Source of the DNA: Candidatus Omnitrophota bacterium
Lineage (GTDB): Bacteria; Omnitrophota; Gorgyraeia; Zapsychrales; Fredricksoniimonadaceae
Assembly: GCA_903944345.1 (NCBI GenBank)
Contig: CAJARJ010000001.1
Span: 12,339 to 76,338 of the forward strand
Direction of reading: 5' to 3'
Length of the DNA stretch: 64,000 bases
Below the pieces are notes generated by a model. It saw only the letters and a list, made by a program, of their open reading frames with translations, was not told where the DNA came from and ran no database searches. This document shows positions 4,898 to 42,169 of the stretch, piece after piece; within the stretch, counting starts at the first letter, position 1; each line of letters starts with the position of its first letter. A program made the position numbers and the translations under genes.

Positions 4898-7800
4898 TTA
4901 AAGGCGAATCCAGCCACCAAAAGATTTTACCGGAGCAATTCCTGTTATTACCGGGACAAGGCTGTCAATATTTACAACCTCTGAAATCATGGCCCAATCC
5001 AAAGAGAACGTTTGTCCCGAACGCTCCAAGGGAATTGCACCAGTATCCAGATCGATACCGCCATAACCAGAATCTTCCACAACGGCTGCGGGGTCTTCTA
5101 TTTCCATAAAGTCACCCCCAGAAAGGCGGGAAAAAACCCGGACTCCACCGTCTTCCCCGGTCATCCGAACAGTGTCTATCTGCTTGCTTTCATCTTCTTT
5201 TAAAGCTGCAATAAGATCATCCAGATGCAAAAGACCTTGAATCAGCGGAGCTTTCTGCGTCATTTGCTCAAACAAAAAGTCTGGCATTAACAAATGACCT
5301 GTAGAAGTCCGCCGAGTACTTTCCTCCACAAGGCTCAGTGCATTTTCTCTTGTAGCCGCGACCCGGAAGCTGCCCAAATCTTTAAGCTCGAACAAGCGTC
5401 CTGGCGTAAGCTTATAACCATCTGCAAGCATTATTGTAATCTCATCTCCACCCATCCGGGTCACGAAGTCCTCAATGCCCCAGAATCTTAACTTTTCAAC
5501 AACCCTGTTATATGCCTCTTGAAACTGAATAGTCACCCGGTCAGCCGCCGTTCTCATCAGGGCTTCCCATTGGTCTGAAGAAACCTTGCCCATGCTTTGC
5601 AAAAGAACCTGAAATTCTTCTGCATTCCGCAAACCAAGCCCCACAACATCCATCGCAATGATAGCCGGGTAACGATAACCTGACGCTCTAATGAAAAAAG
5701 CAAATTCGGAGTCTACCTCCGGCAACTTGCTGTTGCTAGAAACAAATTTCACCGCAGTATTTATAAAGGCCTCTGTCCTGGGATCATACGCTATTCTAAA
5801 ATCTTCCTGCTTGTTTCGAATCAATTCACGCAAAGCATTAACCAGAACAAGAACCCGCTGCGCACGATGCCTGGCCCGAATCGGGTCAGTTGACCACTGT
5901 TTGATATAATCTACCGTTTTCAGCAAACTGTAGTACCGCTGAAGTTTCCGATAACTTCCTTCATTGTCAATCAAAAACCGTTCATCAGGACTAAAATCCT
6001 GCCAAGCCGTTCCTTTACGTAACGGTTTCAAAATCTCCGGCTTTAACAACCCGAAAACAACGCCTTCTCGTTCTTGCTCATTAAAGAATCCTTCGCGGGT
6101 CAACTCTTGCCGCAACTGATTCTCTTCGTCAATAACCTCCTGCATATGCTCCTCATAAAACCTGGAGCTGCCGCCAAGCAGTCCTAACGCTGCGAAAGCA
6201 ATCATACGCTCTGCCTGCATAACCGCTTCTGTCTGATTTGTATATCCATCGCCAGTTTCGGCAACACGACTGATCCCATAAGGGAGCGGAAAAAGATATT
6301 CTTCATTAGGACCGGTCAAACTTATCTGCCCTGCAGAAACCTGCGGCGAGGCTAACTCCAGAGAAAGCCTTTCCGTGATCGAAGCAACTGCTCTTTGCCG
6401 GGCACGAACCACGCGCTGCTCAAACTGCAGGTCATTAAAGTCTGCATCATTATCAAAAGTGTAAATCGTGGTCTTGTAATCCGACAACACTATACGGGGG
6501 ACAAGCCCTTCGCTTTGTAAAGCTTTCGTTAAATAGGATCGTGTATCCGCAATCACAAGATTATTCAAAGATTCCCCCAGAATAGCATTAAGATCTTTAA
6601 GCCCCAAACGCCCGGGCGCACTACCCGGACGCTGAAAGACAACGACGCGCCGACCGGAGGGAATGGACATGATCCCCGCCAATGGAGCCGAGCGCAAAAG
6701 TTGCTCGATCAGCACCCTAATGTCCTCAACAGAAATCCGTACTCCTCGCCGATAGAGATCAACAGTCCGGTAAATTCTTTCTATCCAGATAATTTTGCGG
6801 GCCATACGCTGAGCATGTTCCTGCTTCTGCTCAGCCGTCAGTTCGGCCAGATCCAAAGACTCTTCCGGAACAAACTCGAACAACAACGAGGGCTCCTGAT
6901 CTTCCGGAACCAAGGCCATGCCGGTCGCAAACTCCCTGGTTACAGCCAGCAACGCTCCGGATACAACTGCATCCGCAGCTGTCTGCGCCCGATCCAAGGG
7001 AAAATTCTCAACAAAATTAACACCGCCAGAAAAATACCGCCGAGCAATAACTTCTGAATAATCAACGGACACCTCTTCCCGAATCAGAGAAAAAGCTCCC
7101 TTACGAAACGCTTCCATGTAGCGCCCGTAAAGCTGCTTACTGTCATCCGGCCCGGCCAGGTCTATGCCCTTAACCTTGTTCTGCCCGGTATAGCCGGCAT
7201 TAAGAGGACTTCCGGTCAAACCTTCCTTATACCATCTCGCCAAAATAAGCGAATGGTAAATCTGCCGTAGCGGCGCAAAATGATCCGCTTCGTTCACCGC
7301 CTGCTCCAGAAGCGGCACGATCACCTCGCGCAAGATATCATCCATCTGCAAATCCGGCATTGTCTCTGCCGCCGCCGGCTGTTCCCCGGCCTGCGAATGC
7401 GACGAGCGATACTCGCGATCCAGAAGAACCTTTAAGCGGGCTTCAAGAATAATCACCCGGCCGTTATCCTCATATATCCTGGCCTTCGCCGGAGTTACCC
7501 AGACCCTGTTTAGCACATCCGTAGGGACTTCCGTATTGCCGTACATCTCGTAGGCCTTTCGATAAACCTCGGCCCAGAAGCGCTTCCCGCTGACGCTGTC
7601 GGGATGAAGCATAGACGCGGACACCTGCTTAAGCAGATAATCCTGCGCCAGCAAATCTCTTCCCATTTCTGTTCTGGAGAAATCTTCCGGAATAATCCGG
7701 TCTTTGTCATAAGGAGAAAGGTTAACCCATAATTCGCCGGCAGGCACGGTCAGTGCCGCCAGAAAGTAGCGGATCAATCGGGCAGATTCATCTTTAAAAT

Positions 7801-8062
7801 CGTCGGGCTGACCGGAAAGGTTTCCTGTATCGAGAAGAAAGCTGAATTGAAACGGCTTTTGAGGGTCAATTTGCATGCCCTTGAGCACGGGAGGCGTCAG
7901 CGGACGGCCAGGACTGACCATGACACCAGGCATGGGCAATTGGCCAGGAACCGAAAATGTCTCGGCACGAAGCGGTAAAGGTAATGTGAAACAATAAGCT
8001 ACAACAAGAAAACTGGCAATAACCCGACGAAGAAATCCTGCAAAAAAAACAAATACCGACAT
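4898..8062 (-). CDS. Large secreted/membrane-anchored protein, paralog 1 of a three-member family (conserved about 350-aa N-terminal domain, variable middle, shared C-terminal GGIDL tail)
   Basis: Shares PPVLKG...F.F.LD.G...WVNLSPY(E/D)KDRIIPE.F..TEMGRDLLAQDY(V/L)LKQ...(Q/K)RFW..VY...NEG..F..LRQIY.SLILA.WYK...LIREE...RKYF(A/S)GG with ORFs at 8186-10573 and 20655-23990; the track start at 8095 is GTG, so ATG at 8062 is preferred. Confidence 0.8.
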   Translation of the reverse strand: MSVFVFFAGFLRRVIASFLVVAYCFTLPLPLRAETFSVPGQLPMPGVMVSPGRPLTPPVLKGMQIDPQKPFQFSFLLDTGNLSGQPDDFKDESARLIRYFLAALTVPAGELWVNLSPYDKDRIIPEDFSRTEMGRDLLAQDYLLKQVSASMLHPDSVSGKRFWAEVYRKAYEMYGNTEVPTDVLNRVWVTPAKARIYEDNGRVIILEARLKVLLDREYRSSHSQAGEQPAAAETMPDLQMDDILREVIVPLLEQAVNEADHFAPLRQIYHSLILARWYKEGLTGSPLNAGYTGQNKVKGIDLAGPDDSKQLYGRYMEAFRKGAFSLIREEVSVDYSEVIARRYFSGGVNFVENFPLDRAQTAADAVVSGALLAVTREFATGMALVPEDQEPSLLFEFVPEESLDLAELTAEQKQEHAQRMARKIIWIERIYRTVDLYRRGVRISVEDIRVLIEQLLRSAPLAGIMSIPSGRRVVVFQRPGSAPGRLGLKDLNAILGESLNNLVIADTRSYLTKALQSEGLVPRIVLSDYKTTIYTFDNDADFNDLQFEQRVVRARQRAVASITERLSLELASPQVSAGQISLTGPNEEYLFPLPYGISRVAETGDGYTNQTEAVMQAERMIAFAALGLLGGSSRFYEEHMQEVIDEENQLRQELTREGFFNEQEREGVVFGLLKPEILKPLRKGTAWQDFSPDERFLIDNEGSYRKLQRYYSLLKTVDYIKQWSTDPIRARHRAQRVLVLVNALRELIRNKQEDFRIAYDPRTEAFINTAVKFVSSNSKLPEVDSEFAFFIRASGYRYPAIIAMDVVGLGLRNAEEFQVLLQSMGKVSSDQWEALMRTAADRVTIQFQEAYNRVVEKLRFWGIEDFVTRMGGDEITIMLADGYKLTPGRLFELKDLGSFRVAATRENALSLVEESTRRTSTGHLLMPDFLFEQMTQKAPLIQGLLHLDDLIAALKEDESKQIDTVRMTGEDGGVRVFSRLSGGDFMEIEDPAAVVEDSGYGGIDLDTGAIPLERSGQTFSLDWAMISEVVNIDSLVPVITGIAPVKSFGGWIRL

Positions 8063-8185
8063 GACCTCATCCCACCTTCTATTAACCCAAATCACTAATA
8101 ATTATTTGATAAACATATAAAATATAACAAACTATATCCTGTATTATGTACTTTGGCAAGGATCGAGGAAACCCCGAATCCGAAT

Positions 8186-10573
8186 TCAGGGCCGCCCGTT
8201 TGGGAATTCGCCAAAAAACTCGGCGGCATCCAGAACTCGTATAGACCCAATAACCGGAACAAAACCAGCCGAACCTTCTGCCTGTACTGATAGCCCAGTC
8301 GAATAAAGAATATTTGCTCCTGTTTTGGAATCAGACTTATCCGAATCCATTACAACCTCCGTCAGATCAATCCCGCCTTTCGCCGCTTCAGAACTATCCC
8401 GGGCCGTCAAAGAATAACCTGTCGTCAGCAAAGAAAAAGCGGGAGCATTGCTATTGATGTTCAAAAGCAATCCGCCCGTCGCTCCCCAATACTGCGAGAC
8501 TGACACTCCCGTCGTCGGGATTATCCCGGCAGAACTTACGGGCGGATGAACATCCGGTGAAGAAAGTGTCAAGGCTGCGGGAACCTTTCCGGAAAACTGC
8601 CAGAAACTTGTCTCCTTCAGCACCTTGAGCGTCCGTATCGCAAAATGAAAAGACGATGAATTATTGATTGCCACGTCTCCCGCGGGAACAAGAACTCTCA
8701 AATTTGAACCGTATCTCTGCCGAGCGTTTTCCAGCCGGCCTGGACGGATTGAAGAAATGAGCTGCGACTGTTCGTTAGCCCCTGCGTCCAGCAGAATCGA
8801 CGGCAGGTTTAACAACCTCTTTTGGTGCTCCCGAGCTTCATCCAAGGAAATATCTGTCTCCAGATTGGAAAGATTAATCCATTTCAGAATTGTGCCCTTA
8901 AGACGCAACAGGACTGCAATCTGCTTCATAGCCGCGACATTCAAGATGTCAACATGCGCCACAATCACCCTATCCGAAGCGATAAGCGTCTTGAGGGCCC
9001 GGAATTGTTGCTCGTCTATTGCCCACAGCAAAGGAGTCCTCCCTCTGTAACGATACCCATCCTTAATGTAGGATTCAAAGCCGCCATCGCCAAACCTGAC
9101 TGGATCTGCCTCCACGAGCACTTTGCGAACAGCCGCAAGCAACCCGCCAAAATCCTCGGAGTGCTCCACCAAACGTAAAAGTTCAAAAGTCACGCGAGCC
9201 ACCTTGCTGTCAATATCAAGAATGACTATCAGGTCTGCCTCTCTTTCCAGCGCAATATCTATATTGTGAAACGAGCCTATGCCCAGATAGCCTCCGCCTT
9301 TCTCCCCAAAGCCATCAAGCCCTGCCAATAAATAATTAATATCCTCGTTCGACATCATCCATCCCTCCGAGCGGATGCTGATACCGGAATCAATCCACCT
9401 GACTCCTGGCTGCATGGCCATATCCACCTCAAGAAGAACGCCTTCTGCAGCCACCAAATTCGGCACAGAAACAAGATTGGATTCAACTATCTTCATAAGT
9501 GAGCTGACCTGGAAATGGGCTCCGCCAGCGAAATATTTCCGTGATATCAGCCCGGACAAAACATCCTCCTCTTCCCGGACCAACACGCTGACTCCCTGGC
9601 TGAATGTTTTCAGATAACGTTCCCAAATCTTCCGAGCTTCGCCGAAATCACTAATCTGAACCCCCGAAGTTTTGTTACGATCAACGTAGGCCATTGAAAA
9701 AACTGAGTGGCGCATCTTTTTCTTGTACCAGGCAGCCAGAATAAGGGATTGATAAATCTGACGAAGTTGCGAAAAATTCCGGCCCTCGTTGACTTCTTGT
9801 TCCAGAACAGGAATAACGATTTCGCGCAGGACAGATATGGCAATCTCGTTCTCTCTCTGGTCAGGTACCAGCTTATTTCCCTGGTCCGATTTCACACTTA
9901 ACCCTGGTGGGGTCGGCAAAGCGTTGTTCGATGTTGCCAGATAATCCGTCTCCAACTTAACCTTCAGGCGCGAATCCGTGATATAAACTGCGCCGACTTT
10001 AGCATTCTCGTAAACTACAACTTTATCCGGGACAATCCACACCTTGTTGAACGTATTAATAGGGATATCTGTTGTGCCATACCTTTCCTGCGCCAAAGCG
10101 TACACTCTCTGCCAGAATTTCTGACCATTCTCTCCTTGAGGAGATAACAATAACGCTGTGATCTGCTTGAGAACATAGTCCTGCGCCAGAAGGTCTCGAC
10201 CCATTTCGGTCTGCCCGAAAGCTTCGGGGATGATACGGTCTTTTTCATACGGCGAAAGGTTGACCCATAAGTCTTTCTCTGGAATGGTCAAGCTGGCCAG
10301 AAAATATTTGACCAATTTTTCGGATTCTTTTTTCAGGAGACCCTGCTCCCTGATTGACTGCAGAGTTTGCTCCCCAGGATCCAAAATAAAGTCAAATCTG
10401 AGCGGATCGTTAGGATAAACTTTAAGTCCTTTAAGGACAGGAGGATTAAACGCTGCACTCAAGGGCAACATCTGCCCCGAATCTGATGACGGAAACTGAG
10501 CCGAAACCGGACTTTCAATCTGAACAATAAAAACAGAAAGAAAAACCGAAGACAGGAATTTACGTATAAGCAT
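8186..10573 (-). CDS. Secreted protein, paralog 2 of the same family (795 aa), in tandem with paralog 1
   Basis: Signal peptide MLIRKFLSSVFLSVFIVQIESPVSA; conserved N-terminal domain and C-terminal GGIDL tail. Confidence 0.8.
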   Translation of the reverse strand: MLIRKFLSSVFLSVFIVQIESPVSAQFPSSDSGQMLPLSAAFNPPVLKGLKVYPNDPLRFDFILDPGEQTLQSIREQGLLKKESEKLVKYFLASLTIPEKDLWVNLSPYEKDRIIPEAFGQTEMGRDLLAQDYVLKQITALLLSPQGENGQKFWQRVYALAQERYGTTDIPINTFNKVWIVPDKVVVYENAKVGAVYITDSRLKVKLETDYLATSNNALPTPPGLSVKSDQGNKLVPDQRENEIAISVLREIVIPVLEQEVNEGRNFSQLRQIYQSLILAAWYKKKMRHSVFSMAYVDRNKTSGVQISDFGEARKIWERYLKTFSQGVSVLVREEEDVLSGLISRKYFAGGAHFQVSSLMKIVESNLVSVPNLVAAEGVLLEVDMAMQPGVRWIDSGISIRSEGWMMSNEDINYLLAGLDGFGEKGGGYLGIGSFHNIDIALEREADLIVILDIDSKVARVTFELLRLVEHSEDFGGLLAAVRKVLVEADPVRFGDGGFESYIKDGYRYRGRTPLLWAIDEQQFRALKTLIASDRVIVAHVDILNVAAMKQIAVLLRLKGTILKWINLSNLETDISLDEAREHQKRLLNLPSILLDAGANEQSQLISSIRPGRLENARQRYGSNLRVLVPAGDVAINNSSSFHFAIRTLKVLKETSFWQFSGKVPAALTLSSPDVHPPVSSAGIIPTTGVSVSQYWGATGGLLLNINSNAPAFSLLTTGYSLTARDSSEAAKGGIDLTEVVMDSDKSDSKTGANILYSTGLSVQAEGSAGFVPVIGSIRVLDAAEFFGEFPNGRP

Positions 10574-10689
10574 AAGAAAAATATATACGTAAAGAACGTA
10601 ATCGGCAAATAAACAAAGGATCTACTACCAAAATATCCAGTTGATATATACTTACTGCCGCCCCCTTCTTTAACTTATATGCAAATAAT

Positions 10690-10718
10690 TTGACATTTAA
10701 TCTAAACAATGCTAATCT
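10690..10718 (+). promoter_or_regulatory. Sigma70-like promoter candidate for comM (TTGACA - 17 nt - TAATCT)
   Basis: Consensus -35 hexamer at 10690-10695, 17-nt spacer, -10-like TAATCT at 10713-10718, about 50 nt upstream of the comM ATG, in an AT-rich divergent intergenic region. Confidence 0.4.
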
Positions 10719-10766
10719 TCAGTCCCCCTTTTGAATTCTTCCTGCAATTTGATAAAAGGATCTTCC

Positions 10767-12287
10767 ATGCTCGCCAAAACTTTCAGCTTTGGACTCAACG
10801 GACTGGACGCGTCCCTCATCACAATCGAAGCCGACAGCGGCCGTGGACTACCTTGCATGTCGGTAGTTGGCCTGCCCGACAGCGCCGTCAAGGAAAGCCG
10901 TGACCGCGTCCGTGCCGCCATTCGCAACTCCGGATTGGCCTGGCCTCAGGGGAGAGTCACCATCAATCTGGCTCCGGCCGACACCCGAAAGGAAGGCCCC
11001 TCCTTTGACCTGGCTATTGCTCTGGCCGTACTCGGCGCAGATGAAAAAATAGCTTTGGAAAATCTGGAACGTTTTGCTTTTCTGGGCGAGCTTTCCCTGA
11101 GCGGCAGCATCAAACCCGTTACAGGTGTTATCTCTGCCGCCATAGCAGCATCTTCGACCCCGGGGCTGCAAGGACTAATCGTTCCTGCAGAGAATGCCGC
11201 AGAAGCCGCCCTGGTCGCCGCCATTCCTGTATTCGGCTTCAGAAACATTAATGATGTTGTCCTGTTCCTCTCCAATCCCGCGAAAGGGATCCCTCAGGAT
11301 TGTCCGGAGCCATTGTCTCCTGTGCACGACAACACGCCGGATATGTCCGAAATCAAGGGACAACACCGCGCACGCCGCGCGCTTGAAGTGGCTGCCGCCG
11401 GCGGACACAATATTCTGCTTATCGGGCCGCCCGGAGGCGGGAAAACGATGCTGGCCCGCCGTTTCGCCGGCATTCTTCCGGCCATGACCCGTAGAGAATT
11501 ACTGGAAACAACCCGCATCCGCTCTGTTTGCGGCCTTCTGCGCCCCGGATCCATCCTGCAGGAGTCCCGGCCTTTTCGTTCACCTCACCACACCAGCTCG
11601 CATATTGCCCTGATCGGAGGCGGAAGCAGCCCCCGCCCCGGAGAAATCACCCTTGCTCACAATGGAGTATTGTTTCTTGATGAGCTGCCGGAGTTTTCGC
11701 GCGCTGCTCTGGAAGCCCTGCGCCAGCCCCTCGAGGAAGGGGTAGTGCACGTTTCCCGGGCCGCGCGCGCCGTGCATTTCCCCGCGCAATTTCTACTAAT
11801 AGGTGCTATGAACCCCTGTCCTTGCGGACGCGGCGGCGACCGGCAGAATTCCTGCCGTTGCAACGATGAAAACATCCGCCGTTATCTGCACAAAATATCA
11901 GGCCCTCTCATGGAAAGAATTGATTTGCACCTGCGTCTACCCGGACTAACGTCCGCAGAACTGATCGATCTGCCGTCGGGCGAAGCTTCCACCTGCATTC
12001 GCCAACGCGTCGAACAAGCCCGTTTGCTGCAGTACGCCAGACAGCATAAAACAGAAGCCATGTGCAATGCGCAACTCCCCCCTCAGAAAATAAAAGAATA
12101 CTGTTCGCTGGACAAAGAATGTCGCAATCTTCTTAAGGATGCGGTTGACAGCCTCGGACTTTCGGCCCGGGCACACGACAAGATTCTTAAAGTCGCCAGG
12201 ACAATAAGCGATCTGGCAGGAACAAGAAACATTCAAACCGAACACCTGGCAGAAGCCATCAGTTACCGGATACTCGACAGATCATAG
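10767..12287 (+). CDS. comM: YifB/ComM family Mg-chelatase-like AAA+ ATPase
   Basis: N-terminal Lon-protease-like domain, Walker A GPPGGGKTMLA, ChlI-type AAA+ core, C-terminal Cys cluster CPCGRGGDRQNSCRC. Confidence 0.9.
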   Translation: MLAKTFSFGLNGLDASLITIEADSGRGLPCMSVVGLPDSAVKESRDRVRAAIRNSGLAWPQGRVTINLAPADTRKEGPSFDLAIALAVLGADEKIALENLERFAFLGELSLSGSIKPVTGVISAAIAASSTPGLQGLIVPAENAAEAALVAAIPVFGFRNINDVVLFLSNPAKGIPQDCPEPLSPVHDNTPDMSEIKGQHRARRALEVAAAGGHNILLIGPPGGGKTMLARRFAGILPAMTRRELLETTRIRSVCGLLRPGSILQESRPFRSPHHTSSHIALIGGGSSPRPGEITLAHNGVLFLDELPEFSRAALEALRQPLEEGVVHVSRAARAVHFPAQFLLIGAMNPCPCGRGGDRQNSCRCNDENIRRYLHKISGPLMERIDLHLRLPGLTSAELIDLPSGEASTCIRQRVEQARLLQYARQHKTEAMCNAQLPPQKIKEYCSLDKECRNLLKDAVDSLGLSARAHDKILKVARTISDLAGTRNIQTEHLAEAISYRILDRS

Positions 12288-12330
12288 AACCAGGAAAAAT
12301 CCAGAATAACCATTCAGTTTCTTGTATCCG

Positions 12331-14190: not shown

Positions 14191-14213
14191 AGCTTTACTT
14201 TAATAAATATTTT

Positions 14214-14633
14214 TTACGCCAGGGCGATATTAAAAATATCATGCCGACCCACAACTCCGACCAATATCTTGCCATCAAAAACAGGAATGGTCACTGCCCC
14301 TTTTTTGTGCAACAAGGCCAACGCTTTAAGAGCACTGTCATCTTTCTGGAGGCTTGGATAAACCGGGTCAATAAATTCGCTGACCGGACGCTCGGCAACC
14401 ACGTTCAGGGCCTGGATCTTCTGTCCTCCTTTATCCATTACATCCCCGATAATATCCATCAGGTCTTCGGTGGTAAATATCCCCAGAAGCCCCTCAGGAG
14501 ACTGTGGATCAACCACCAATACCCCATTAATCCGGTAGCGTAACAACAAGTGTGCGGTGTTTCTGATAGAAACATCCGGACGAACCTTAATTGGATGATC
14601 ATTCATGATATCCGCAACCGGTAAATTAAGCAT
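14214..14633 (-). CDS. CBS domain pair protein
   Basis: Two CBS-like motifs (VADIM...PIKV; VSEFI...PSLQ) in a 139-aa protein. Confidence 0.75.
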   Translation of the reverse strand: MLNLPVADIMNDHPIKVRPDVSIRNTAHLLLRYRINGVLVVDPQSPEGLLGIFTTEDLMDIIGDVMDKGGQKIQALNVVAERPVSEFIDPVYPSLQKDDSALKALALLHKKGAVTIPVFDGKILVGVVGRHDIFNIALA

Positions 14634-14751
14634 ATCCCTCCTTGACCCAAAGTCTCTCCCAGAATTATTTTTAAACAGCCCCCTTTAAAAATATCAAGTA
14701 ATAGCTTATACTTTAACCGGATTGGCAGGACTGTCAACTCTAAGGATATAT

Positions 14752-16293: not shown

Positions 16294-16302
16294 TAGAAGA
16301 AG

Positions 16303-16680
16303 TTAGTTCGAAAAAAAACGGGTAAGCTTCATCAGCAACGACTCATTGTGAAAAGGCTTGGCCAGATAATCATCAGCACCGAGCTCCATCATCCGCTCCA
16401 TCTCCGCCGTATCCAGCACACCGGACACCACCAGAATCTTGATCGGATCGCTTATAGTTTCCCTGATAGACCGACATACATCATAGCCATCCATTCCAGG
16501 CATACGAATATCCAGTAAAACCAGATCAGGCTTGGAATCCGCGATCATCCGCAAAGCGGACAAGCCGTCATTGGCTGTCTCAACCACAAAATTGCCTATC
16601 ATATACAAAACCCTGCGCAATGAGGCACACATCTCAGGGTCATCATCAACAACCAGAATCCTTTTGGCAACCTTTGTCAT
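16303..16680 (-). CDS. Stand-alone response-regulator receiver (CheY-like) domain protein
   Basis: VVDDD...DLVLLDIRMPGMDGY...KPF receiver motifs with conserved Asp/Lys. Confidence 0.85.
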   Translation of the reverse strand: MTKVAKRILVVDDDPEMCASLRRVLYMIGNFVVETANDGLSALRMIADSKPDLVLLDIRMPGMDGYDVCRSIRETISDPIKILVVSGVLDTAEMERMMELGADDYLAKPFHNESLLMKLTRFFSN

Positions 16681-17033
16681 AAAACATCCTCTTTTTGTCC
16701 TGACTTAAGAAGAAAGAAACTGTAACAACGCAAGAAGTTCTCACACACTTCGGCGGGAGTATCCACCAGCTGGACTCCGGTGTGATAATACTTTTCCTTG
16801 GCCACAAAACCTGACCAAACCACTTCTGTACGAACCACCAAAAGAGGAAACTCCCTGACCTCAAGGGAAATATCAATCTTGTTCCCCGGCTCAAAAGGAG
16901 TTAACCCTGAGAAACACACGCCATGGCTGTTAATATCCACAATCCTGACCGACATGTCCCGCCCCGATACCAGCGGACGCGCCTGCGCCGGAAAATCAAC
17001 CTTGACCCTGCACCAATGACGTTTGTTAGACAT
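16677..17033 (-). CDS. PilZ domain (c-di-GMP-binding) protein, overlapping the receiver gene by 4 nt
   Basis: RHWCR...DINSHGVCF resembles the PilZ RxxxR and D/NxSxGG motifs; ATGA start/stop overlap with the downstream receiver gene. Confidence 0.65.
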   Translation of the reverse strand: MSNKRHWCRVKVDFPAQARPLVSGRDMSVRIVDINSHGVCFSGLTPFEPGNKIDISLEVREFPLLVVRTEVVWSGFVAKEKYYHTGVQLVDTPAEVCENFLRCYSFFLLKSGQKEDVL

Positions 17034-17071
17034 TGTTCTCCTCTATTGTTCGCTGATCTGCAACAAAAAAT

Positions 17072-17716
17072 TTAACGAGCAAGCTTGGTCACAAGAAAAT
17101 AACTTCCGAACAAAAGAACCATGAACGCCAGTGAAAGGATATCAAAATATTTCTCGATAAACTTTTCGATCCTCGCACCAAACAAGCGCAGCAAGCCCGC
17201 GACCAGAAAGAAACGGCCCGCTCTTCCGAATACGGAAGCCACCAACAAGATCGGAAGCGATATTCGAAACAGGCCAGCAGCAATCGTAAAAACTTTATAA
17301 GGAATCGGGGTAAAAGCTGCCGTAAAAACCGCCCAGAAAGCATTATCCGCATAAAGTTTACGAACTGTTTCTACATGCGACCCCAGATGATATGTGGAAA
17401 CAATAATCTTGCCAAGCGTTTCAAAAAGAAAGAAACCGATAAAATACCCAAATAAAGCCCCCAGTACCGATCCGGTCGTGCAAATCAGTGCGTTGCGCCA
17501 CCACGCCCTTCGATCAGCAATGACCATTGCGATCAGAAGAACATCTGGAGGAATCGGAAAAAAAGAACTTTCAATAAAAGCGATGAAAAAAAGCGCCCAG
17601 GGTGCATGCCGGGTTTTGGCCCAATGAATCGTCCAGGTATATATTCCTCTCAACCAGGCCAATGGGCCCTTGCAAGAACAACCTGAGGTTTTCTGTGAGA
17701 ACATTCTTTCCCCCAT
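17072..17716 (-). CDS. YqaA/DedA-family (VTT/SNARE-associated domain) membrane protein
   Basis: FFIAFIESSFFPIPPDVLLIAMV...GRFFLVAGLL profile typical of the YqaA family. Confidence 0.7.
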   Translation of the reverse strand: MGERMFSQKTSGCSCKGPLAWLRGIYTWTIHWAKTRHAPWALFFIAFIESSFFPIPPDVLLIAMVIADRRAWWRNALICTTGSVLGALFGYFIGFFLFETLGKIIVSTYHLGSHVETVRKLYADNAFWAVFTAAFTPIPYKVFTIAAGLFRISLPILLVASVFGRAGRFFLVAGLLRLFGARIEKFIEKYFDILSLAFMVLLFGSYFLVTKLAR

Positions 17717-17720
17717 AAAA

Positions 17721-18923
17721 TTATTGAACCTTCAAAGCAAACTTCCGGCCATATTCAACACAGCGCGCCAGATCAGCATCACTCGGCTGCCACATATTGC
17801 GGATGCCATCATCAACACACTCATAGCCAATTTCTTTAAGAATCGAATTGAGCCGCACCTGTCCCTCGCCTGACCAGCCGTAACTGCCAAAAGCCGCGGC
17901 CTTCTTTCCCTGAAAAGACAACCCTCTTAACTCCTCCAAAAGCGCTCCGACAGAAGCCAGGGCACACTTGTTATGCGAAGGAGAACCCAGAAGAAACGCT
18001 TTGGAACGAAAGATATCGGTCATAACATCATTCTTGTCGGATTTTGCCAACGAATGCACCGCCAGGACAACTTCGGAATCTGCCTCACGAATACCCTTGG
18101 CAATAGCCTCGGCCATGGCCCGGGTGGCTCCCCACATCGAATCATAGGCAATAGTAATGCGGTCCTCGCGGTACCCGTTAGCCCATAAAGCATACGCGTC
18201 AATAATCTTGTGAATATCCTTCCGCCAGCAAGCACCGTGACTGGGGCATATAATATCAATTGGCAAATCCAGCGACTTGAGCTCGCGCAGCTTGGAGTCA
18301 ACCAGTTTACTCCAGGGCGCGATAATATTAGCGTAATACTTTATGGCCTCTTTCCAGAGACTGTGCTGATCAACCAGATCAGCAAAAATCTTGTCCGTAG
18401 CCAGATGCTGACCAAAAGCATCGTTGGAAAAAAGAATATTGTCCTGTGTCAAATAAGTGAACATCGTATCCGGCCAGTGCAACATGGGCGCTTCAATAAA
18501 CATGAGCTGTTTGCCATTGCCAATGTCCAGGCGGTCACCTGTACGCACCGGTTTGAAATTCCAGTCCTTGTGAAAATGCCCCCGCAGGGATTTCACCCCG
18601 TTATGACTGCAATAAACCGGGACATCAGGAAGATGCTGCATCAAATCCACAATTGCCCCCGAATGATCAATCTCGGCATGATTAATGACAACCGCATCAA
18701 TTCTGGAAAGTTCCACTTCTGCCGGCAATTCGCGCATGAACTCGGCCGAAAAAGGAGCCCAGACCGTATCGATAAGAACGGTCTTCTGTTCTTTGATAAG
18801 ATAGGAGTTATAGGTCGAACCATGATGGGTGGACAATTCGTCGCCATGAAAACGCCGTAATTCCCAATCAACTTTCCCGACCGAATAAACATTGTTTTTA
18901 ATTTTTTTACTCATCTTGCACAC
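17721..18923 (-). CDS. Class A flavodiiron protein (rubredoxin:oxygen / nitric oxide reductase-like; metallo-beta-lactamase plus flavodoxin domains)
   Basis: Di-iron site motif HAEIDHSG, C-terminal flavodoxin-like domain, 400 aa. Confidence 0.85.
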   Translation of the reverse strand: MCKMSKKIKNNVYSVGKVDWELRRFHGDELSTHHGSTYNSYLIKEQKTVLIDTVWAPFSAEFMRELPAEVELSRIDAVVINHAEIDHSGAIVDLMQHLPDVPVYCSHNGVKSLRGHFHKDWNFKPVRTGDRLDIGNGKQLMFIEAPMLHWPDTMFTYLTQDNILFSNDAFGQHLATDKIFADLVDQHSLWKEAIKYYANIIAPWSKLVDSKLRELKSLDLPIDIICPSHGACWRKDIHKIIDAYALWANGYREDRITIAYDSMWGATRAMAEAIAKGIREADSEVVLAVHSLAKSDKNDVMTDIFRSKAFLLGSPSHNKCALASVGALLEELRGLSFQGKKAAAFGSYGWSGEGQVRLNSILKEIGYECVDDGIRNMWQPSDADLARCVEYGRKFALKVQ

Positions 18924-19013
18924 TCCTCAATAAAAATACACCCGACTCATGCTTCTTCGGGAGTCATCAAGTTATCATACTATTACGTCTAAATGAAAGC
19001 ATTTTCCTTACGC

Positions 19014-19042
19014 AAAAAAATCCCCCGGCCTGCACCGGGGGA
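19014..19042 (-). terminator. Rho-independent terminator downstream of the DEAD-box helicase gene
   Basis: tcccccgg/ccggggga 8-bp stem with a 6-nt loop followed on the minus strand by TTTTTTT. Confidence 0.65.
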
Positions 19043-19071
19043 CTTGATAAACAAAAACACCCCGTAACATT

Positions 19072-20310
19072 CTAGCGGCGGCGGAACCCTTTACGAGCAG
19101 AAAAACTACGCCCCATAAATTTCCTGTTTCCCCCCGAAGATGCGGGCGCATGCACTGAACGCACCGGCAACAAAAACTCTTCGGTCTGAACATCCGGATG
19201 CTTAATCACGGGAATATCCGCACGAATCAGACGCTGAATCGTGGTGATAGACTCAAACTGATCGGGAGTGGCAAACGAAATAGCCCGGCCTTCCATTCCT
19301 GCCCGCCCAGTGCGGCCAATACGATGCACATAATTCTCGGCATCATCCGGAAGGTCATAATTAACCACCAGCTCAATTCCCTTGACATCAATACCACGAG
19401 AGGCAATATCGGTAGCCACCAGGACACGAAAACGGCCAACTTTAAAGCCTTCCAGAGCCGCACGACGCTGGGACAAGGAACGGTCAGAATGTATTTCGGC
19501 GGCATTATGCCCCATTTTACGCAGGTCACGGGTGATTTTGCTGGCGCCATGCTTGGTCCGGCAAAAAAGCAGAACCGAACCGCGATATTGCGTAAGAATC
19601 TTGCCCAAAAGGGTCGTCTTGGCCTCACGCCGGATAATAAACAGTTCCTGGGAGACTCTTTCGGACGCTGTTCCCGAGGGAGCCACCTCAATATTCACCG
19701 GAAGCTTCATGTGCCGGGAGGCCATATACATGATCTCTTTGGGCATGGTCGCGGAAAACAGCATGGTCTGTCTTTCCTTGGGTACAAATCTGAGTATTTG
19801 CTCAATCTGGGGGGCAAACCCCATGTCCAGCATGCGATCCGCTTCATCCATAACCAGAATGCTCACATGATCAAGCTTGAGGGTATGGCGCTCGGTCACA
19901 TGATCAATCAGTCGCCCGGGCGTGGCAATAATAATTCTGGGATTACGCCGCAGCATCCGCACCTGTTCTTCCATGGATGCTCCGCCAATCAAAACCGCAG
20001 TCTGCAGAGCAAACGGAGGGGCAACCTTGCGAAAAGTTTCATCGACCTGCACGGCCAATTCGCGGGTCGGCACCAGAACCAATGCCAATCCTTGTCCTGC
20101 CGCCAGGCGCTGGACAACCGGAATGGCGAACGCGAGGGTTTTGCCCGTTCCTGTCTGAGCCACCCCCATCACATCTTTACCTTCCGTAGCAACAGGAATT
20201 GCCTTGTGCTGAATCGGAGTCGGGGTCTTGAACTTCATCCGCTCCAGAACCTCCAGCACCTTGGGGGCAATGCCGAGTCCATAAAATGTTAACGATTGCT
20301 GTTCTGTCAT
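19072..20310 (-). CDS. DEAD-box ATP-dependent RNA helicase (RhlE-like) with a basic C-terminal tail
   Basis: Q-motif TPIQ, AQTGTGKT, DEAD, SAT, HRIGRTGR motifs. Confidence 0.9.
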   Translation of the reverse strand: MTEQQSLTFYGLGIAPKVLEVLERMKFKTPTPIQHKAIPVATEGKDVMGVAQTGTGKTLAFAIPVVQRLAAGQGLALVLVPTRELAVQVDETFRKVAPPFALQTAVLIGGASMEEQVRMLRRNPRIIIATPGRLIDHVTERHTLKLDHVSILVMDEADRMLDMGFAPQIEQILRFVPKERQTMLFSATMPKEIMYMASRHMKLPVNIEVAPSGTASERVSQELFIIRREAKTTLLGKILTQYRGSVLLFCRTKHGASKITRDLRKMGHNAAEIHSDRSLSQRRAALEGFKVGRFRVLVATDIASRGIDVKGIELVVNYDLPDDAENYVHRIGRTGRAGMEGRAISFATPDQFESITTIQRLIRADIPVIKHPDVQTEEFLLPVRSVHAPASSGGNRKFMGRSFSARKGFRRR

Positions 20311-20654
20311 AAAAAGAATCCTCTTTTCCTAAAAAGGGCGTCACAGAAAACAAGCGGCATCCGGATAGGCTCCAGCCTCCCGGTCATACCTGATTTTTCA
20401 GGGTGCGCTTGTATGTCAACGCGGTAAATGGCCGACCCAAACTGTAAGGTCGCAAGTGGCAGGAGCAGGCGGCAAAACTTTTGGCACGCGATAAACTACG
20501 CCTACCCGAACAAGGTGGGTTGGACATTCAATTAATATTGGGGTAATTATACCACACGGAACGGGCGGCTGCCAGAAATATTATTTCTCCCGCGCGTTTC
20601 ACCTTATTATTTCTACAAAGTGCTTTTCTGACCTTCGCCCTTCTGGAAACCGGT

Positions 20655-23600
20655 TCACCTCTGACCATCAAAGAAAACAGCACCCCCCTGACTGGGACGA
20701 ATAGCTGCGATCTCAGGAAAAAAACCGCGACAGGACTGATACTCTTTCCACAAATCCGATCCGGAATAAAACCCTTTCCAGTCGTCCGTTCCCTGAATTT
20801 CAAGAAGATCTTCTGTTGAATTCAAATCAATACCACCAGGGGCCTCTGCTGCGTCTTCCCCTGAATCAGACATCTCTCGAATCAGGACTTGTCCGGAAGC
20901 ATCAAATTCGAACTCAAGTTTTATTGATCCATAAGAATACAATTGTCTTGTCCCGGCCTTGTACGGCCCCCTTTCATCTCCTCCCTGCCGTTGAAAAAAG
21001 AAATCGTCCCCGGATCGTCGCAACAAAAAAACAAAAGAACCGACGGGCCCCTGTTTCCTGGAGTCCCTCTCCATAGGCACCAAAGCACGCGCCTTACCAC
21101 GATAGAAAACATCCCCTGTCACAGGATCTTCGACTCTGAACCCCTCATTTCTGGAGAACGTAAAGCGCAGGCCAAGAGCCTCAAACCCTTTTTGAACGGC
21201 ATAATAAGAATTCTGTGACATCCCCGGAACACCATCAGGATAGAAAATGGGCCTTAAAGCATCCGCAATCTGAGGAGCAACGGATTGCATGCGTAAAAAA
21301 AGAAACTGCAAATCAAGACTCGGGATTTCGCCGACAAGTTCTTCGCTCATCCAGAAACCATCCGCCACCTTTGTCCCGGTAAGATTATCGTCTCTATAAT
21401 AATCACGCACAATCCTGGCGACTGCATCTATAGCCTTTTCCTGCTCGTCGGACGAGCGAAAAGATGTAAAATATATATTTATCGAATCGTGACGATTCTC
21501 CGGCGAACTGCCCGCCCCCAAAGACGGTCGACCTGATTTGTAATTCCCCTGAATCAACGGACCGGAACCGTCCTGGTCGATAAACAAACGATCCAGAGCC
21601 TGAATGCTTTGCGGATTGACCATAATATTCAGTTTCATACGACCACGCAGCGGCCCCTGGATATTATGACCACCACGAAAGACCCAACCCCCTTGCTCTG
21701 TAACCTCTATGCCCGAGGCAGAAGCCCGCAAAGCCGCCTCAAACTCAACCTCGTTCGATGCCCCGTAAGTTCTTGCTGGAGCATAAGAAGCCTCTGTAAG
21801 ATACATATAATAATCCCTTACAATCTGAAATAATACATCCCCCCATTTCTGCGGAAATCGCGTCAATTGATCAATTCTTTTTTGTTTCACGATATCTGGA
21901 TCAAGCTGCAAGCGTCGATAAACCTTATCAAATTGATCAAAAGAACTGATAAGTTGTTTCGCGCGACTCCTGTCCAGTGGCGAAGCAACAGGCATAGCGC
22001 CATCCCAATACTGTTGAAAGTCTTTTTCTTCAGTATCAAAATAATCCGATAGCGCCCTGTACACGGGCTTGTATAAAGTCGTATCGTAAAATTTTACAAG
22101 CTGGGTAGGAAACGATTGATCATCAGGTATCTTGTGGTCAAAAGTTGTCAGACTCTCTGCCCGATAAAAACTCTCTTCCCCTTGATCAAGCACTCCCCCG
22201 ATCGAATCAAAGATATGCATCTGCTCTGCACCCAGAACTTCATCCAGAGTCACCATCTTTTGGCCATATAATAATTCCACCTCAACCCTGCCAACAAACG
22301 ACTGCAAAAGACTCTCTGCCTCAGTGGTCACAAAAGGAGCCGCAACAATAAAACGGGGTCTTTCTCCTTTTGCGTTCTCCTCAAACCAGGCGTTAACCTG
22401 ATCAATGGTTCTTTTAATCTGCTGGCCTCCATACAAAGCATCGTCAAAAATTACAAAATCCCTGATCCCTGCATTGAACATTTTCCTCAACGCCCCGGTT
22501 CGGCTCTCAGATGCTCCCTGAAAGTATGATGCCATCTGAGGGGTTGTCTGCAAATCCTCTTCCACTAGCGAATAAACCCACCGGCGTGACTTGTGCTTGT
22601 CGAAATCCCACAAAACAGCATATGGCCTCTCTTTGTACGCATGCCGGAGATCATTAAACCTTGACACAAGCCTGTCCAGCTCACTCTTAAACTCGGGGAA
22701 AGAAATATGCCGCAGATTTTCAGCTATCTTTTTCTTAATTTCCCGTATTGACGAATCAGGCTCATTCTTCCACCAAGCCTCAAGCTCCTCTGTTTTCAGT
22801 CTTGGGACAAAGTCCGGTGACTGAAACAAATCAGATTTTAATCCCGGCCCCGTCCCCTTAATAACAGAGACCTCCAGGCCATCATCAACCGGATGAAGTA
22901 TTATCTCGACAAACATATCGCGCCCTGAAACATCTCCGAAGACAACCGGCGGATTTCTAAAGAGAATCGATCCCTGGGAAAAGTCCATATTCATTCCCCC
23001 GGAGAAATACTTTCTCGGGATCACTTCATCCGAATAAACATCCTTCTCTTCCCGGATCAGGTTATAGGCCCCCTGGCGAAATGATTCCGCATACCGCTGC
23101 CAGATTTTTTCCGCTTCCTTCGGATCGTCAATATTGACACCCGCTGTTTTGTTGCGGTTCACATACACCTCCGACAACAACGACTGCCAGATTTTCTTCT
23201 TGTACCATGTTGCCAAAATCAGGGACTGATAAACCTGACGCAGCCGGGCAAAGCCCTCCCCCTCATTGACCTCTTTCTCCAGTGCAGGAACGACCACCTC
23301 ACGCAGGACAGCGCGAGCTATGTCCGATCCAGCGGATACCGTCCGATCCGCTCCAAGTCCGCCTCCTGCCGCCAGATAATCCTGCTCCAGCATAACCTTC
23401 AGGCGTGACTCCGCAATGTACACCGCTCCGGCTCCGGCATTGCCGTACACCACCGCCTTGTCAGGCACAATCCACACCTTGTTGAACGTATCTATCGGAA
23501 TATCCGTAGTACCGTATTTCTCCTGTGCCAGGGCGTAGACTTTCCGCCAGAACCTCTTGCCTGTTTCCCCTTCCGGGTGCAATAACGAAGACGTGAGCTG

Positions 23601-23990
23601 TTTAAGAATATAATCCTGCTCCAGAAGATCCCGGCCCATTTCAGTCTGGCCAAACGCTTCGGGAATAATGCGGTCTTTCTCGTAAGGAGACAGGTTGACC
23701 CACAGGTCTTTTTCGGGAACAGTCAGGCTGGCGAGGAAATACCGGACGAGCTTTTCGGATTCTTTCTTGAGATCCGGTTCTGATCGCGTCCCCGGATCAA
23801 GAATGAAATCAAAGCGAAGAGGTTCTTTCGGATATACCTTAAGTCCTTTCAGCACAGCAGGTTGAAACCCTGCTCCGGAGACAGCCATCCCTCCGGCAGA
23901 AGGCAGAACGGGCTGGGATTGCCCCCAGGACAACTGCTCCAGAAAAAAGACCACCGCAAACAGAACAGACAAAACTTTCCTTATAACCAT
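20655..23990 (-). CDS. Secreted protein, paralog 3 of the three-member family (1111 aa)
   Basis: Signal peptide MVIRKVLSVLFAVVFFLEQLSWG; conserved N-terminal domain with the WVNLSPYEKDRIIPEAFGQTEMGRDLL stretch (identical to paralog 2 except one residue); C-terminal GGIDL tail. Confidence 0.8.
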   Translation of the reverse strand: MVIRKVLSVLFAVVFFLEQLSWGQSQPVLPSAGGMAVSGAGFQPAVLKGLKVYPKEPLRFDFILDPGTRSEPDLKKESEKLVRYFLASLTVPEKDLWVNLSPYEKDRIIPEAFGQTEMGRDLLEQDYILKQLTSSLLHPEGETGKRFWRKVYALAQEKYGTTDIPIDTFNKVWIVPDKAVVYGNAGAGAVYIAESRLKVMLEQDYLAAGGGLGADRTVSAGSDIARAVLREVVVPALEKEVNEGEGFARLRQVYQSLILATWYKKKIWQSLLSEVYVNRNKTAGVNIDDPKEAEKIWQRYAESFRQGAYNLIREEKDVYSDEVIPRKYFSGGMNMDFSQGSILFRNPPVVFGDVSGRDMFVEIILHPVDDGLEVSVIKGTGPGLKSDLFQSPDFVPRLKTEELEAWWKNEPDSSIREIKKKIAENLRHISFPEFKSELDRLVSRFNDLRHAYKERPYAVLWDFDKHKSRRWVYSLVEEDLQTTPQMASYFQGASESRTGALRKMFNAGIRDFVIFDDALYGGQQIKRTIDQVNAWFEENAKGERPRFIVAAPFVTTEAESLLQSFVGRVEVELLYGQKMVTLDEVLGAEQMHIFDSIGGVLDQGEESFYRAESLTTFDHKIPDDQSFPTQLVKFYDTTLYKPVYRALSDYFDTEEKDFQQYWDGAMPVASPLDRSRAKQLISSFDQFDKVYRRLQLDPDIVKQKRIDQLTRFPQKWGDVLFQIVRDYYMYLTEASYAPARTYGASNEVEFEAALRASASGIEVTEQGGWVFRGGHNIQGPLRGRMKLNIMVNPQSIQALDRLFIDQDGSGPLIQGNYKSGRPSLGAGSSPENRHDSINIYFTSFRSSDEQEKAIDAVARIVRDYYRDDNLTGTKVADGFWMSEELVGEIPSLDLQFLFLRMQSVAPQIADALRPIFYPDGVPGMSQNSYYAVQKGFEALGLRFTFSRNEGFRVEDPVTGDVFYRGKARALVPMERDSRKQGPVGSFVFLLRRSGDDFFFQRQGGDERGPYKAGTRQLYSYGSIKLEFEFDASGQVLIREMSDSGEDAAEAPGGIDLNSTEDLLEIQGTDDWKGFYSGSDLWKEYQSCRGFFPEIAAIRPSQGGAVFFDGQR

Positions 23991-31414: not shown

Positions 31415-31831
31415 TTATTCCTGCCAATTAACAACATCATCCTGCCCCTCGACCCCGTCCCGCCCAAGGGAGAACAGGTCAAAATCATGCGACCGGTGGC
31501 TGCCTGGCGATTTATACTGGTACAATCGACCCCAGGGATCAACCGGATTTTTGTCCAGATAAGGCCCTTTCCAGCGCAAAGCCGATGATGGCGCCTTGAG
31601 AAGCGCCGCCAGACCTTCTTCTGTCGTCGGAAAGGCTCCATTGTCCAACTCATACATCTTAAGAGCCGTGGCCAGATTCAGCTCCACGTCAGCCTGGGCC
31701 ACACTACGCCTGGCCTCCTCGGAACGCCCGGAAAGTTTTGGCACAATCATCGCCGCCAGAACACCGATAATGATCACCACCAACATAATCTCAACCAAAG
31801 TAAAACCTCTGCGAAAACGCCTGAAACTCAT
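31415..31831 (-). CDS. gspG: Type II secretion major pseudopilin GspG
   Basis: Class III prepilin signal RRGFTLVEIMLVVIIIGVLAAM; GspG core LDNGAFPTTEEGLAALL...WKGPYL...DPWG..Y.Y..PG...DFDL.SLG.DG; the track ORF start is extended spuriously, so ATG at 31831 with a GGAGG RBS is used. Confidence 0.85.
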   Translation of the reverse strand: MSFRRFRRGFTLVEIMLVVIIIGVLAAMIVPKLSGRSEEARRSVAQADVELNLATALKMYELDNGAFPTTEEGLAALLKAPSSALRWKGPYLDKNPVDPWGRLYQYKSPGSHRSHDFDLFSLGRDGVEGQDDVVNWQE

Positions 31832-31847
31832 AAGCCTTTGCCTCCGT

Positions 31848-34106: not shown

Positions 34107-34109
34107 AAA

Positions 34110-35480: not shown

Positions 35481-35484
35481 AAGA

Positions 35485-36705: not shown

Positions 36706-36710
36706 AAATT

Positions 36711-40659
<3,949 letters not shown>

Positions 40660-40662
40660 AGA

Positions 40663-42162: not shown

Positions 42163-42169
42163 AGAAGTC

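Follow-up and report, generated by a model that had tools for sequence, protein, structure and literature searches.

Three genes in a 64,000-nucleotide stretch of a Candidatus Omnitrophota contig (CAJARJ010000001.1, positions 12,339 to 76,338; hereafter the window) encode members of a large, unannotated and undescribed protein family that has an unusual sandwich architecture and is essentially confined to Omnitrophota. The products of these genes, named A, B and C, each contain a predicted Sec signal peptide, a conserved N-terminal domain (N-domain), a variable middle and a conserved C-terminal tail, and across the family the two conserved modules, or bookends, almost always occur together. 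The logic of a conserved carrier combined with variable payloads is known; the modules, their bookend arrangement and the content of the payload are new. Our tentative reading is that N-domain and tail form one carrier that gives diverse enzymes a common destination in the envelope or on the surface, at the interface with a host or prey.

Genes A, B and C share two conserved modules

The preliminary description of this DNA, made from the sequence alone, had placed three paralogous open reading frames (ORFs) here, and our ORF list and translations confirmed all three on the minus strand. Gene A (4898..8062) encodes 1054 aa from its ATG codon; the length of 1065 aa given earlier is obtained only from an alternative GTG start at 8095. 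Gene B (8186..10573; 795 aa) lies in tandem, upstream of A, and gene C (20655..23990) encodes 1111 aa. The N-terminal motifs that had been quoted were found in all three translations, and the domain that they share is about 300 aa long and 46-70% identical. Over ~297 aa, pairwise BLASTP gave identities of 45.6% for A/B, 51.2% for A/C and 69.6% for B/C. As delimited with a hidden Markov model (HMM) and by alignment, the N-domain runs from about residue 30-45 to an R[KR]YF[SA]GG motif at residue 332-351, which corresponds to aa 43-347 in A (7022..7936, ending in RRYFSGG), aa 31-351 in B (9521..10483, RKYFAGG) and aa 30-332 in C (22995..23903, RKYFSGG), all on the minus strand like the features below. 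An N-domain HMM built from homologues matched only A, B and C in the six frames of the window, with E-values from 1e-127 to 1e-146 (2.8e-127, 9e-146 and 7e-146, respectively).

The three proteins had been described as unrelated after about residue 400. This holds for their middles, which have no detectable mutual similarity (BLASTP, E>3), but not for their last 54-63 residues, a second module conserved in all three as GGIDL-x(35-45)-[FL]xP[VE]I..I.[PV]. Instead of an N-terminal handle with a variable C-terminus, the proteins are sandwiches in which a conserved tail accompanies the N-domain. The tail spans 54 aa in A (4901..5062, GGIDLDTG...LVPVITGIAPV...), 63 aa in B (8189..8377, GGIDLTEV...GFVPVIGSIRVL...FFG) and 60 aa in C (20658..20837, GGIDLNST...GFFPEIAAIRPS...). 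In the window, a tail HMM matched only these three ORFs (E-values of 1.4e-6, 6e-4 and 9e-5, respectively, against 9,251 ORFs). Furthermore, a six-frame search of the window for GG[IV]D[LFMI] gave only three matches, one in each gene, 54-63 codons ahead of its stop. Similarity ranks the three proteins alike in N-domain and tail, with B/C highest and A/B lowest. The variable middle, hereafter the cargo, comprises 653 aa in A (5063..7021), 381 aa in B (8378..9520) and 719 aa in C (20838..22994).

At the start of each protein, a basic n-region is followed by a hydrophobic core and a c-region of small residues, which bears out the N-terminal signal or anchor sequences claimed for them. We read putative Sec signal peptides at aa 1-33 of A (7964..8062, ...LPLPLRA/ETF), aa 1-25 of B (10499..10573, ...SPVSA/QF) and about aa 1-25 of C (23916..23990). 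The three features that define the family are all present in A, B and C: the predicted Sec leader, a single WVNLSPYE...RKYFSGG domain in the N-terminal part, and a GGIDL...PVI.xI.P tail that stops no more than ~10 aa short of the C-terminus.

The bookend architecture is widespread in Omnitrophota

A word-indexed protein search with B gave 1,261 proteins at E<=1e-3 when the query was its N-domain and 3,108 when it was the full-length protein. The best 120 N-domain matches had E-values of 1e-91 to 1e-125, and nearly every named one was labelled Omnitrophota or Omnitrophica. A scan of species-representative genomes, one per GTDB species, revealed at least 593 loci, nearly all in Omnitrophota metagenome-assembled genomes (MAGs). 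Copy number, which the preliminary description had proposed to check, is high: several loci per MAG are often found, tandem arrays of family members are common, and JABDGZ01 has seven loci with eight genes among the best 80 loci alone. The source metagenomic scaffold (335 kb; ENA BUCK21-1 scaffold_4) contains at least five members: besides A, B and C, two proteins of 1389 and 892 aa are encoded in tandem ~100 kb off. An exhaustive search with the tail profile returned at least 4,441 representatives of 50%-identity clusters, 1,698 of them at E<=1e-10.

The tail ended within ~10 residues of the C-terminus in all 150 of the 150 best matches. The complete ORFs in the fetched loci (n=64) measured 403-2012 aa, and about 52 of them ended in the tail consensus GGIDLt..nMnLqt.N.g..IkF.lDPAMl.qLqNApGF.PVIiNIqPm..L..FLG. 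Apparently tail-less members were mostly genes split by a frameshift or TAA stop, with a downstream piece that bears the tail. Conversely, 39 of 49 tail-retrieved proteins of at least 700 aa had the N-domain at their N-terminus; the other 10 had no signal-peptide-like start and look truncated at their 5' end. Proteins retrieved with full-length B carried the tail in 100 of 113 cases, the others being short or partial. Each bookend was present once per protein, and the variable middle measured at least ~225 aa. From the position of the tail, the co-occurrence of the two modules and the single copy of each, the proteins are thus built of a signal peptide, the N-domain, a variable middle and the tail, in this order, with bookends that almost always come together. 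The bookends also diverge together, as the identities of N-domain and tail were correlated (Spearman rho 0.70, 2,500 random pairs), whether the cargo was homologous or not.

Two kinds of irregular gene call were encountered. An in-frame TAA or a frameshift separates the N-domain and tail parts in loci L026 (4692-4694), L042, L060 and L080, and these split genes may be pseudogenes or assembly errors. The tail-retrieved protein P0242 (1,108 aa) lacks an N-domain and starts with another GGIDL element; its gene call may start inside the tail of an upstream tandem member.

The N-domain had been left without a family name, and no Pfam, NCBIfam, PADLOC or PDB match was found that would give it one. 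The tail likewise had no credible match in Pfam, NCBIfam or PADLOC, including 49 tails compared with Pfam at E<=10. The N-domain profile matched none of the sequences of solved structures, phage records contained no match to the family, and no description of it was found in the searchable literature, Omnitrophota papers included. The idea that the tail duplicates the start of the N-domain was rejected (hhalign probability 0.3).

Family members have predicted Sec-type leaders

Among 197 intact N-termini, a hydrophobic h-region was present in 195, K or R before the core in 190, a strict AxA in 98 and a lipobox-like motif in only 2. The leaders have a small-residue or AxA c-region followed by acidic residues, a charge pattern that corresponds to an N-in/C-out orientation. 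Read from these patterns, Sec-type leaders are predicted throughout the family.

The cargo is diverse and exchanged between frames

Searches of 65 middles against Pfam identified 88 different families. These include S-adenosylmethionine (SAM) methyltransferases, PPDK_N with PEP-utilizers, HATPase_c, radical SAM, HEAT and TPR repeats, enolase (2e-67), Glu/Leu/Phe/Val dehydrogenase, alanine dehydrogenase/PNT, histidine phosphatase, GNAT and PP2C. Precomputed Pfam assignments for 113 database proteins added, on full-length members, adenosine deaminase, PGK, PGM, CheR, GDSL lipase, NUDIX, peptidase M48, NAD-dependent epimerase, glycosyltransferase 1, protein kinases, HAD, GGDEF and DUF1861. By these domain matches, most of the cargo is made up of signalling domains and of enzymes that depend on ATP, SAM, NAD or Fe-S. 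Some of it preserves its catalytic motifs, as radical-SAM cargo retains CxxxCxxC and an enolase cargo of Candidatus Aceula lacicola (L078:6931-10341, JAVCCC010000032.1) retains SHRSGE and K.NQIG. In the latter, Enolase_C (cargo aa 579-893) stands ahead of Enolase_N (912-1006), an order that looks like a circular permutation.

We counted 120 cargo types in 184 full-length proteins, 78 of them singletons. Pairs with N-domains 80-90% identical had homologous cargo in only 2 of 359 cases, compared with 13 of 15 for pairs at 90% or more. Cargo is uncoupled from the frame and freely swapped. The homologue searches and the cargo survey together bear out the preliminary description in that A, B and C are paralogous members of a modular secreted family whose N-terminal domain is conserved while the payload varies.

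The cargo of A belongs to no recognisable family, with no match in Pfam, NCBIfam, PADLOC or PDB, and is a singleton among the 120 cargo clusters. That of B contains DUF7790 (PF25046; E 6.5e-14, 52.4 bits with a cut-off of 23) at protein aa 406-480 (9134-9358), a match that covers only positions 2-74 of the 272 in the model. A full-length orthologue of B, P0366, is 68% identical and carries the same DUF7790 family. The cargo of C has a weak phosphoribosyltransferase (PRTase)-like stretch at protein aa 404-572 (22275-22781), with PRTase-CE (PF24390) at E 8.9e-5 and 22.9 bits, below the cut-off of 27, and a weak PADLOC match to PRTase_III-A (E 0.0034); outside this stretch it matched no family. 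A search of PDB sequences gave nothing for the cargo of A and C and a best E-value of 0.09 for that of B.

Short elements flank the cargo on both sides

The N-domain ends in ...YFSGG-x-[DN]-[LFM], which is itself a GGxDL element like the GGIDL that starts the tail. Another motif, D-x-A-[MQ], was counted 167 times within 50 residues past the end of the N-domain, where two copies are often spaced by 25-30 aa, and ~81 times in the 4-24 residues ahead of the tail. Its density is ~2 per 100 aa on both sides of the cargo vs 0.089 in cargo cores, a ~20-fold enrichment. The tail contains DPAM within itself. In the window, the motif is degenerate, the corresponding regions reading PLDRAQT in A, LLEVDMAMQPG in B and MDFSQ in C. 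These motifs could either cap the helices of small strand-helix units assembling with the tail or be sites of cleavage by a protease.

The AlphaFold model of the N-domain of B (51-sequence alignment; predicted local distance difference test [pLDDT] of 76, predicted template modelling score [pTM] of 0.70) has a mixed alpha/beta fold with long helices and six strands arranged in three hairpins, two of them long. A Foldseek search of the PDB and BFVD with this model gave no credible match. Full-length B, modelled from a 62-sequence alignment with the tails aligned and G733 and G734 invariant, had a mean pLDDT of 58 and its cargo was poorly modelled. In this model, a strand at 378-389, which is the LLEVDMAMQ element, and a helix-strand-helix at 759-787 in the tail reached pLDDT values of ~70-83 between low-confidence, disordered flanks, which suggests that both pack against something.

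Streptomyces surface proteins contain a homologous core domain

Among the PLSDB plasmids, tblastn located the core domain on six large replicons of Streptomyces, with 24-28% identity over 72-90% of the query and E-values down to 7e-27. Matches in the plasmid collection were limited to such large Streptomyces replicons (among them L084-L087, plasmid-classed, 0.33-2.8 Mb). The N-domain HMM matched WP_121549542.1 of S. fungicidicus with an E-value of 4e-46. Four Streptomyces proteins share the same order of parts: a signal peptide, a divergent region of ~350 aa, a PGG[IV]DF[TS]TLE.RY...G.QY hairpin that gave a weak match to the tail HMM, the core, a GGVD[LF]S element, a Pro/Thr/Ser-rich linker and a C-terminal transmembrane segment with a basic end. 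LADTG stands ahead of the transmembrane segment in two of these proteins; NCBIfam strep_LAETG scored 26.4 and 26.7 bits, below its cut-off of 30. LAxTG is recognised by class E sortases (PMC5148588).

We identified 28 positions kept across phyla, i.e., identical in at least 90% of the Omnitrophota sequences and in all four Streptomyces proteins. The polar ones, in B numbering, are N105, T122, R126, D132, K136, E189, N262, R271 and Y320. Like the Omnitrophota family, the Streptomyces surface proteins (e.g., WP_121549542.1 and WP_266737726.1) combine a homologous core with a signal peptide, GG[IV]D[FL] flanks and a fused divergent region. They differ in their reversed order, with the variable region first, followed by the core, the linker and the C-terminal anchor, in the absence of a PVIINIQP-type tail and in their low copy number. 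Because the Streptomyces homologues have a signal peptide and a C-terminal transmembrane or LAxTG-like anchor, the core is predicted to be an extracytoplasmic domain, flanked by GGxD[LF] elements and adjoining a wall anchor in a monoderm. The N-terminal region of WP_121549542.1 has an HSE...CxxC pattern recalling deaminases, with no support from Pfam or PDB. For two Streptomyces homologues, comparison of the N-terminal region with solved structures yielded no credible match (best E 0.016).

A proposed carrier for exported cargo and the alternatives

The reading that we favour, with some reserve, is that of an exported carrier-and-cargo family. A cleavable Sec signal peptide would move the chain across the inner membrane, and the ~300-aa N-domain and ~60-aa tail would be the two halves of one carrier frame, probably packing together with the help of the short strand and DxAM elements that flank the cargo. 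If the bookends are two halves of one frame, the middle would therefore be cargo held between them. The data show the architecture, the export signal, bookends that co-occur and diverge in step, cargo that is diverse and exchanged and, in Streptomyces, an extracytoplasmic, wall-anchored setting of the homologous domain; such contact, the carrier function and the final location are inferred. The frame would give many unrelated enzymes a single extracytoplasmic fate, retention or display on the envelope or surface in the contact zone with a host or prey, where cofactor-dependent enzymes could meet host-derived substrates.

Several observations weigh against this reading. Enzymes that need ATP, SAM, NAD or Fe-S have no obvious way to function in the periplasm or on the surface, and radical-SAM cargo behind Sec, not Tat, leaders is especially awkward. 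The fold of the N-domain matches nothing in the PDB or BFVD, and an anchoring function is therefore without structural support. The correlation between N-domain and tail identity could also reflect the shared descent of subfamilies, the tails of A, B and C are degenerate relative to the family consensus, and a few tail-bearing proteins have no N-domain, e.g., P0297, one of the 10 mentioned above. Furthermore, no partner, receptor or dedicated transporter gene was linked to the family in 81 loci.

The main rival, which we regard as rather doubtful, takes the proteins to be injected effectors. The N-domain would be a translocation module and the tail a secretion signal; after Sec export, an outer-membrane machine, e.g., one related to type II secretion systems (T2SS) and type IV pili (T4P), would pass the cargo into the cytoplasm of the host or prey, where ATP-, SAM- or NAD-dependent cargo would rewire or drain the victim. 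This explains the need of the cargo for cytoplasmic cofactors better than display does, and it fits the catalytic motifs kept in the enolase and radical-SAM cargo. The kinases, GNATs, methyltransferases, radical SAM proteins, glycolytic enzymes and NUDIX domains of the cargo recall the effector sets of intracellular pathogens; many cargoes, however, are HEAT or TPR repeats and not enzymes. Two reports infer that Omnitrophota are host-dependent epibionts or predators (PMC10066038; bioRxiv 10.64898/2026.06.07.730766). The very strong conservation of the N-domain among paralogues would fit recognition by a single machine, but no known translocation fold was found, Foldseek matches to colicin Ia, NheA and Mak proteins being noise (E>0.1, TM-score<=0.15). 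The window does hold T2SS/T4P-type GspE, GspF, PilM/N, pseudopilin and secretin genes. Co-occurrence with this cluster, which the preliminary description had suggested checking, proved to be only local synteny, as T2SS genes flank 3 of the 81 loci and the family has no genetic linkage to any secretion system. Finally, the homologous domain in Streptomyces is found on proteins with a C-terminal membrane or LAxTG-like anchor, which points to retention and not release.

A second alternative, which could be combined with display or injection and which we consider improbable, is that the bookends are removable handles of processed pro-proteins, a protease at the DxAM or Gly-Gly junctions freeing the cargo after export. 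The enrichment of D-x-A-[MQ] within 50 aa past the N-domain and 4-24 aa before the tail would fit such sites, and Gly-Gly is present at both junctions. C39 (double-glycine) and S8 peptidase domains have been reported on giant Omnitrophota proteins (bioRxiv 10.1101/2023.11.21.568195), but no protease gene is linked to the family in the 81 loci. In addition, DPAM is also present inside the folded tail, where it resembles a helix N-cap, the residues ahead of the tail GG are not conserved, unlike those of a double-glycine leader, and the motifs are degenerate in A, B and C.

That the proteins are not exported and that the leader serves as an anchor at the cytoplasmic face would also account for the dependence of the cargo on cytoplasmic cofactors. 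We find this highly improbable, given the N-in/C-out charge pattern of the leaders and the signal peptide and C-terminal membrane or LAxTG-like anchor of the Streptomyces homologues, which are sensible only outside the membrane.

Polymorphic toxins for contact-dependent competition, in which a trafficking domain delivers variable toxins that each have an immunity protein, are the least probable reading of all. The preliminary description had suggested them, and a conserved N-terminal region, highly variable partners, tandem paralogue arrays and one cargo (C) that recalls a conflict-system PRTase speak for this idea, but it fails because three defining features, a C-terminal toxin, an immunity gene and toxin folds, are missing, since the variable part is internal and the extreme C-terminus is the conserved tail, no conserved or small immunity-like gene lies downstream among the housekeeping neighbours, and the cargo consists mainly of metabolic, modifying or signalling enzymes, with nucleases, deaminases, ADP-ribosyltransferases and pore formers not prominent and no PADLOC match at E<1e-3. 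An adhesin role, also raised earlier, is supported by nothing in the analysis.

Comparison with known secretion and display systems

None of the secretion and anchoring families that we tested fits, i.e., two-partner secretion (TPS), the C-terminal domain (CTD) of the type IX secretion system (T9SS), autotransporters, dockerins and LPXTG/PEP-CTERM signals. Families of the polymorphic toxin/CdiA type resemble the present one in their signal peptide, conserved N-terminal module, variable partners, tandem paralogues and free exchange. Unlike in these, the variable module is internal here and a conserved tail follows it, the family has neither immunity genes nor a TPS domain, TpsB, Rhs or any other known trafficking domain, and its payloads are mostly metabolic or signalling enzymes. 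No Pfam family, the TPS domain (Haemagg_act) included, matches the N-domain at E<=1, the predicted fold of which is mixed alpha/beta and not a beta-helix, and no TpsB or other transporter is linked to it.

T9SS cargo also consists of Sec-exported unrelated proteins with a small conserved C-terminal module, and the tail could be a sorting tag of this kind. However, the ~60-aa tail (GGIDL...PVIINIQP...FLG) matches no CTD model, is accompanied by a 300-aa N-domain that is absent from T9SS cargo, and belongs to another phylum; full proteins gave no Pfam or NCBIfam match to Por_Secre_tail or TIGR04183, and 49 tails gave no such Pfam match at E<=10. In contrast to autotransporters (type V secretion, 12-16-strand beta-barrel at the C-terminus or, in the inverse type, at the N-terminus), the tail has only ~60 aa, the N-domain model has six strands and long helices, and Pfam matches are absent. 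Unlike sortase and PEP-CTERM signals, Omnitrophota tails end in ...FLG and variable polar residues, with no transmembrane-plus-basic segment. Cellulosomal enzymes provide another parallel, as these diverse secreted enzymes share a module of ~60-70 aa that docks to a surface scaffold, and Omnitrophota have giant surface proteins. The family differs from them in that it has no dockerin (PF00404) or cohesin signature, its cargo is not carbohydrate-active and no scaffold partner was identified.

By content, the closest relatives are the giant Archaeovorin proteins of Omnitrophota, which share the phylum, the pool of cytoplasmic domains and the localisation puzzle. Their pool includes HEAT, HATPase_c, radical SAM, PPDK_N, NUDIX, GGDEF, HAD and methyltransferases, predicted outside the membrane (West-Roberts et al., bioRxiv 10.1101/2023.11.21.568195). 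Unlike Archaeovorins, family members measure 0.65-2.5 kaa and not tens of kaa, have one signal peptide and no series of transmembrane helices, and possess a fixed frame.

A broader and more speculative proposal, which we rate as unlikely, is that N-domain and tail are the recognition frame of a previously unrecognised, Omnitrophota-specific display or delivery route with an ancestral relative on actinobacterial surfaces. Ultra-small epibionts would use it to export a large and freely exchangeable set of cytoplasm-type enzymes, which would then act in or on the host cell. If true, this route would solve the puzzle, posed by the giant proteins, of why metabolic enzymes are found beyond the membrane. 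Omnitrophota are widespread, almost wholly uncultured and thought to live on or prey on microbes. With thousands of members, several per genome, an invariant frame and more than 100 cargo types, the family offers a tractable handle, two small HMMs being enough to list the exported arsenal of any genome. Its members, with ATP-, SAM-, NAD- and Fe-S-dependent enzymes behind Sec leaders, are also a simpler test case for localisation than proteins 10-150 kaa in length. A display scaffold could be made of a frame that accepts almost any insert, and the Streptomyces homologues open the core domain to work in a cultivable, genetically tractable organism.

Neighbouring genes and context of the window

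Genes around A, B and C are of the housekeeping type. They encode an RlmN-like radical SAM protein, AccA, an L,D-transpeptidase, DUF212, a Mg-chelatase-like ATPase, DUF2079 and CBS proteins, a response regulator and PilZ, a DedA/VTT protein, a flavodiiron-like protein, a DEAD-box helicase and ABC-F ATPases. Directly downstream are a DUF212/PAP2-like gene for A, gene A for B and the DEAD-box helicase gene for C. No immunity-like gene or dedicated transporter was found among the neighbours in the window. In the 81 loci, no non-family neighbour was conserved apart from some housekeeping genes in synteny at up to 5 loci, and the other ORF clusters present at several loci were antisense shadows of the N-domain. 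A promoter and terminator scan around A and B gave nothing above chance.

At 31415-38390 and 60763-62511 on the minus strand, the window contains T2SS/T4P-like genes for a GspG-type pseudopilin, a PilM-PilN fusion, GspF and GspE, and a secretin. The secretin gene is located 22 kb from the others, past a giant gene and two genes for TPR proteins, and genes for F1 ATP synthase subunits (38387-42886) lie between GspE and the giant gene. The latter (44151-58907, minus strand) is a 4,918-aa ORF in which Kelch repeats and Kre9/Ig-like domains occur together with four Laminin_G_3 and four DUF2341 stretches. Giant surface-type proteins like this one have been reported beside T2SS/T4P genes in Omnitrophota. 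Neither the N-domain HMM nor the tail HMM matched the ORF. PilZ genes have been reported near giant genes in Omnitrophota (bioRxiv 10.1101/2023.11.21.568195); in the window, two adjoining small genes (16303-17033, minus strand) encode a PilZ domain and a response-regulator receiver. Nearly all genes of the window are on the minus strand, and GC skew is negative in 31 of its 32 2-kb windows.

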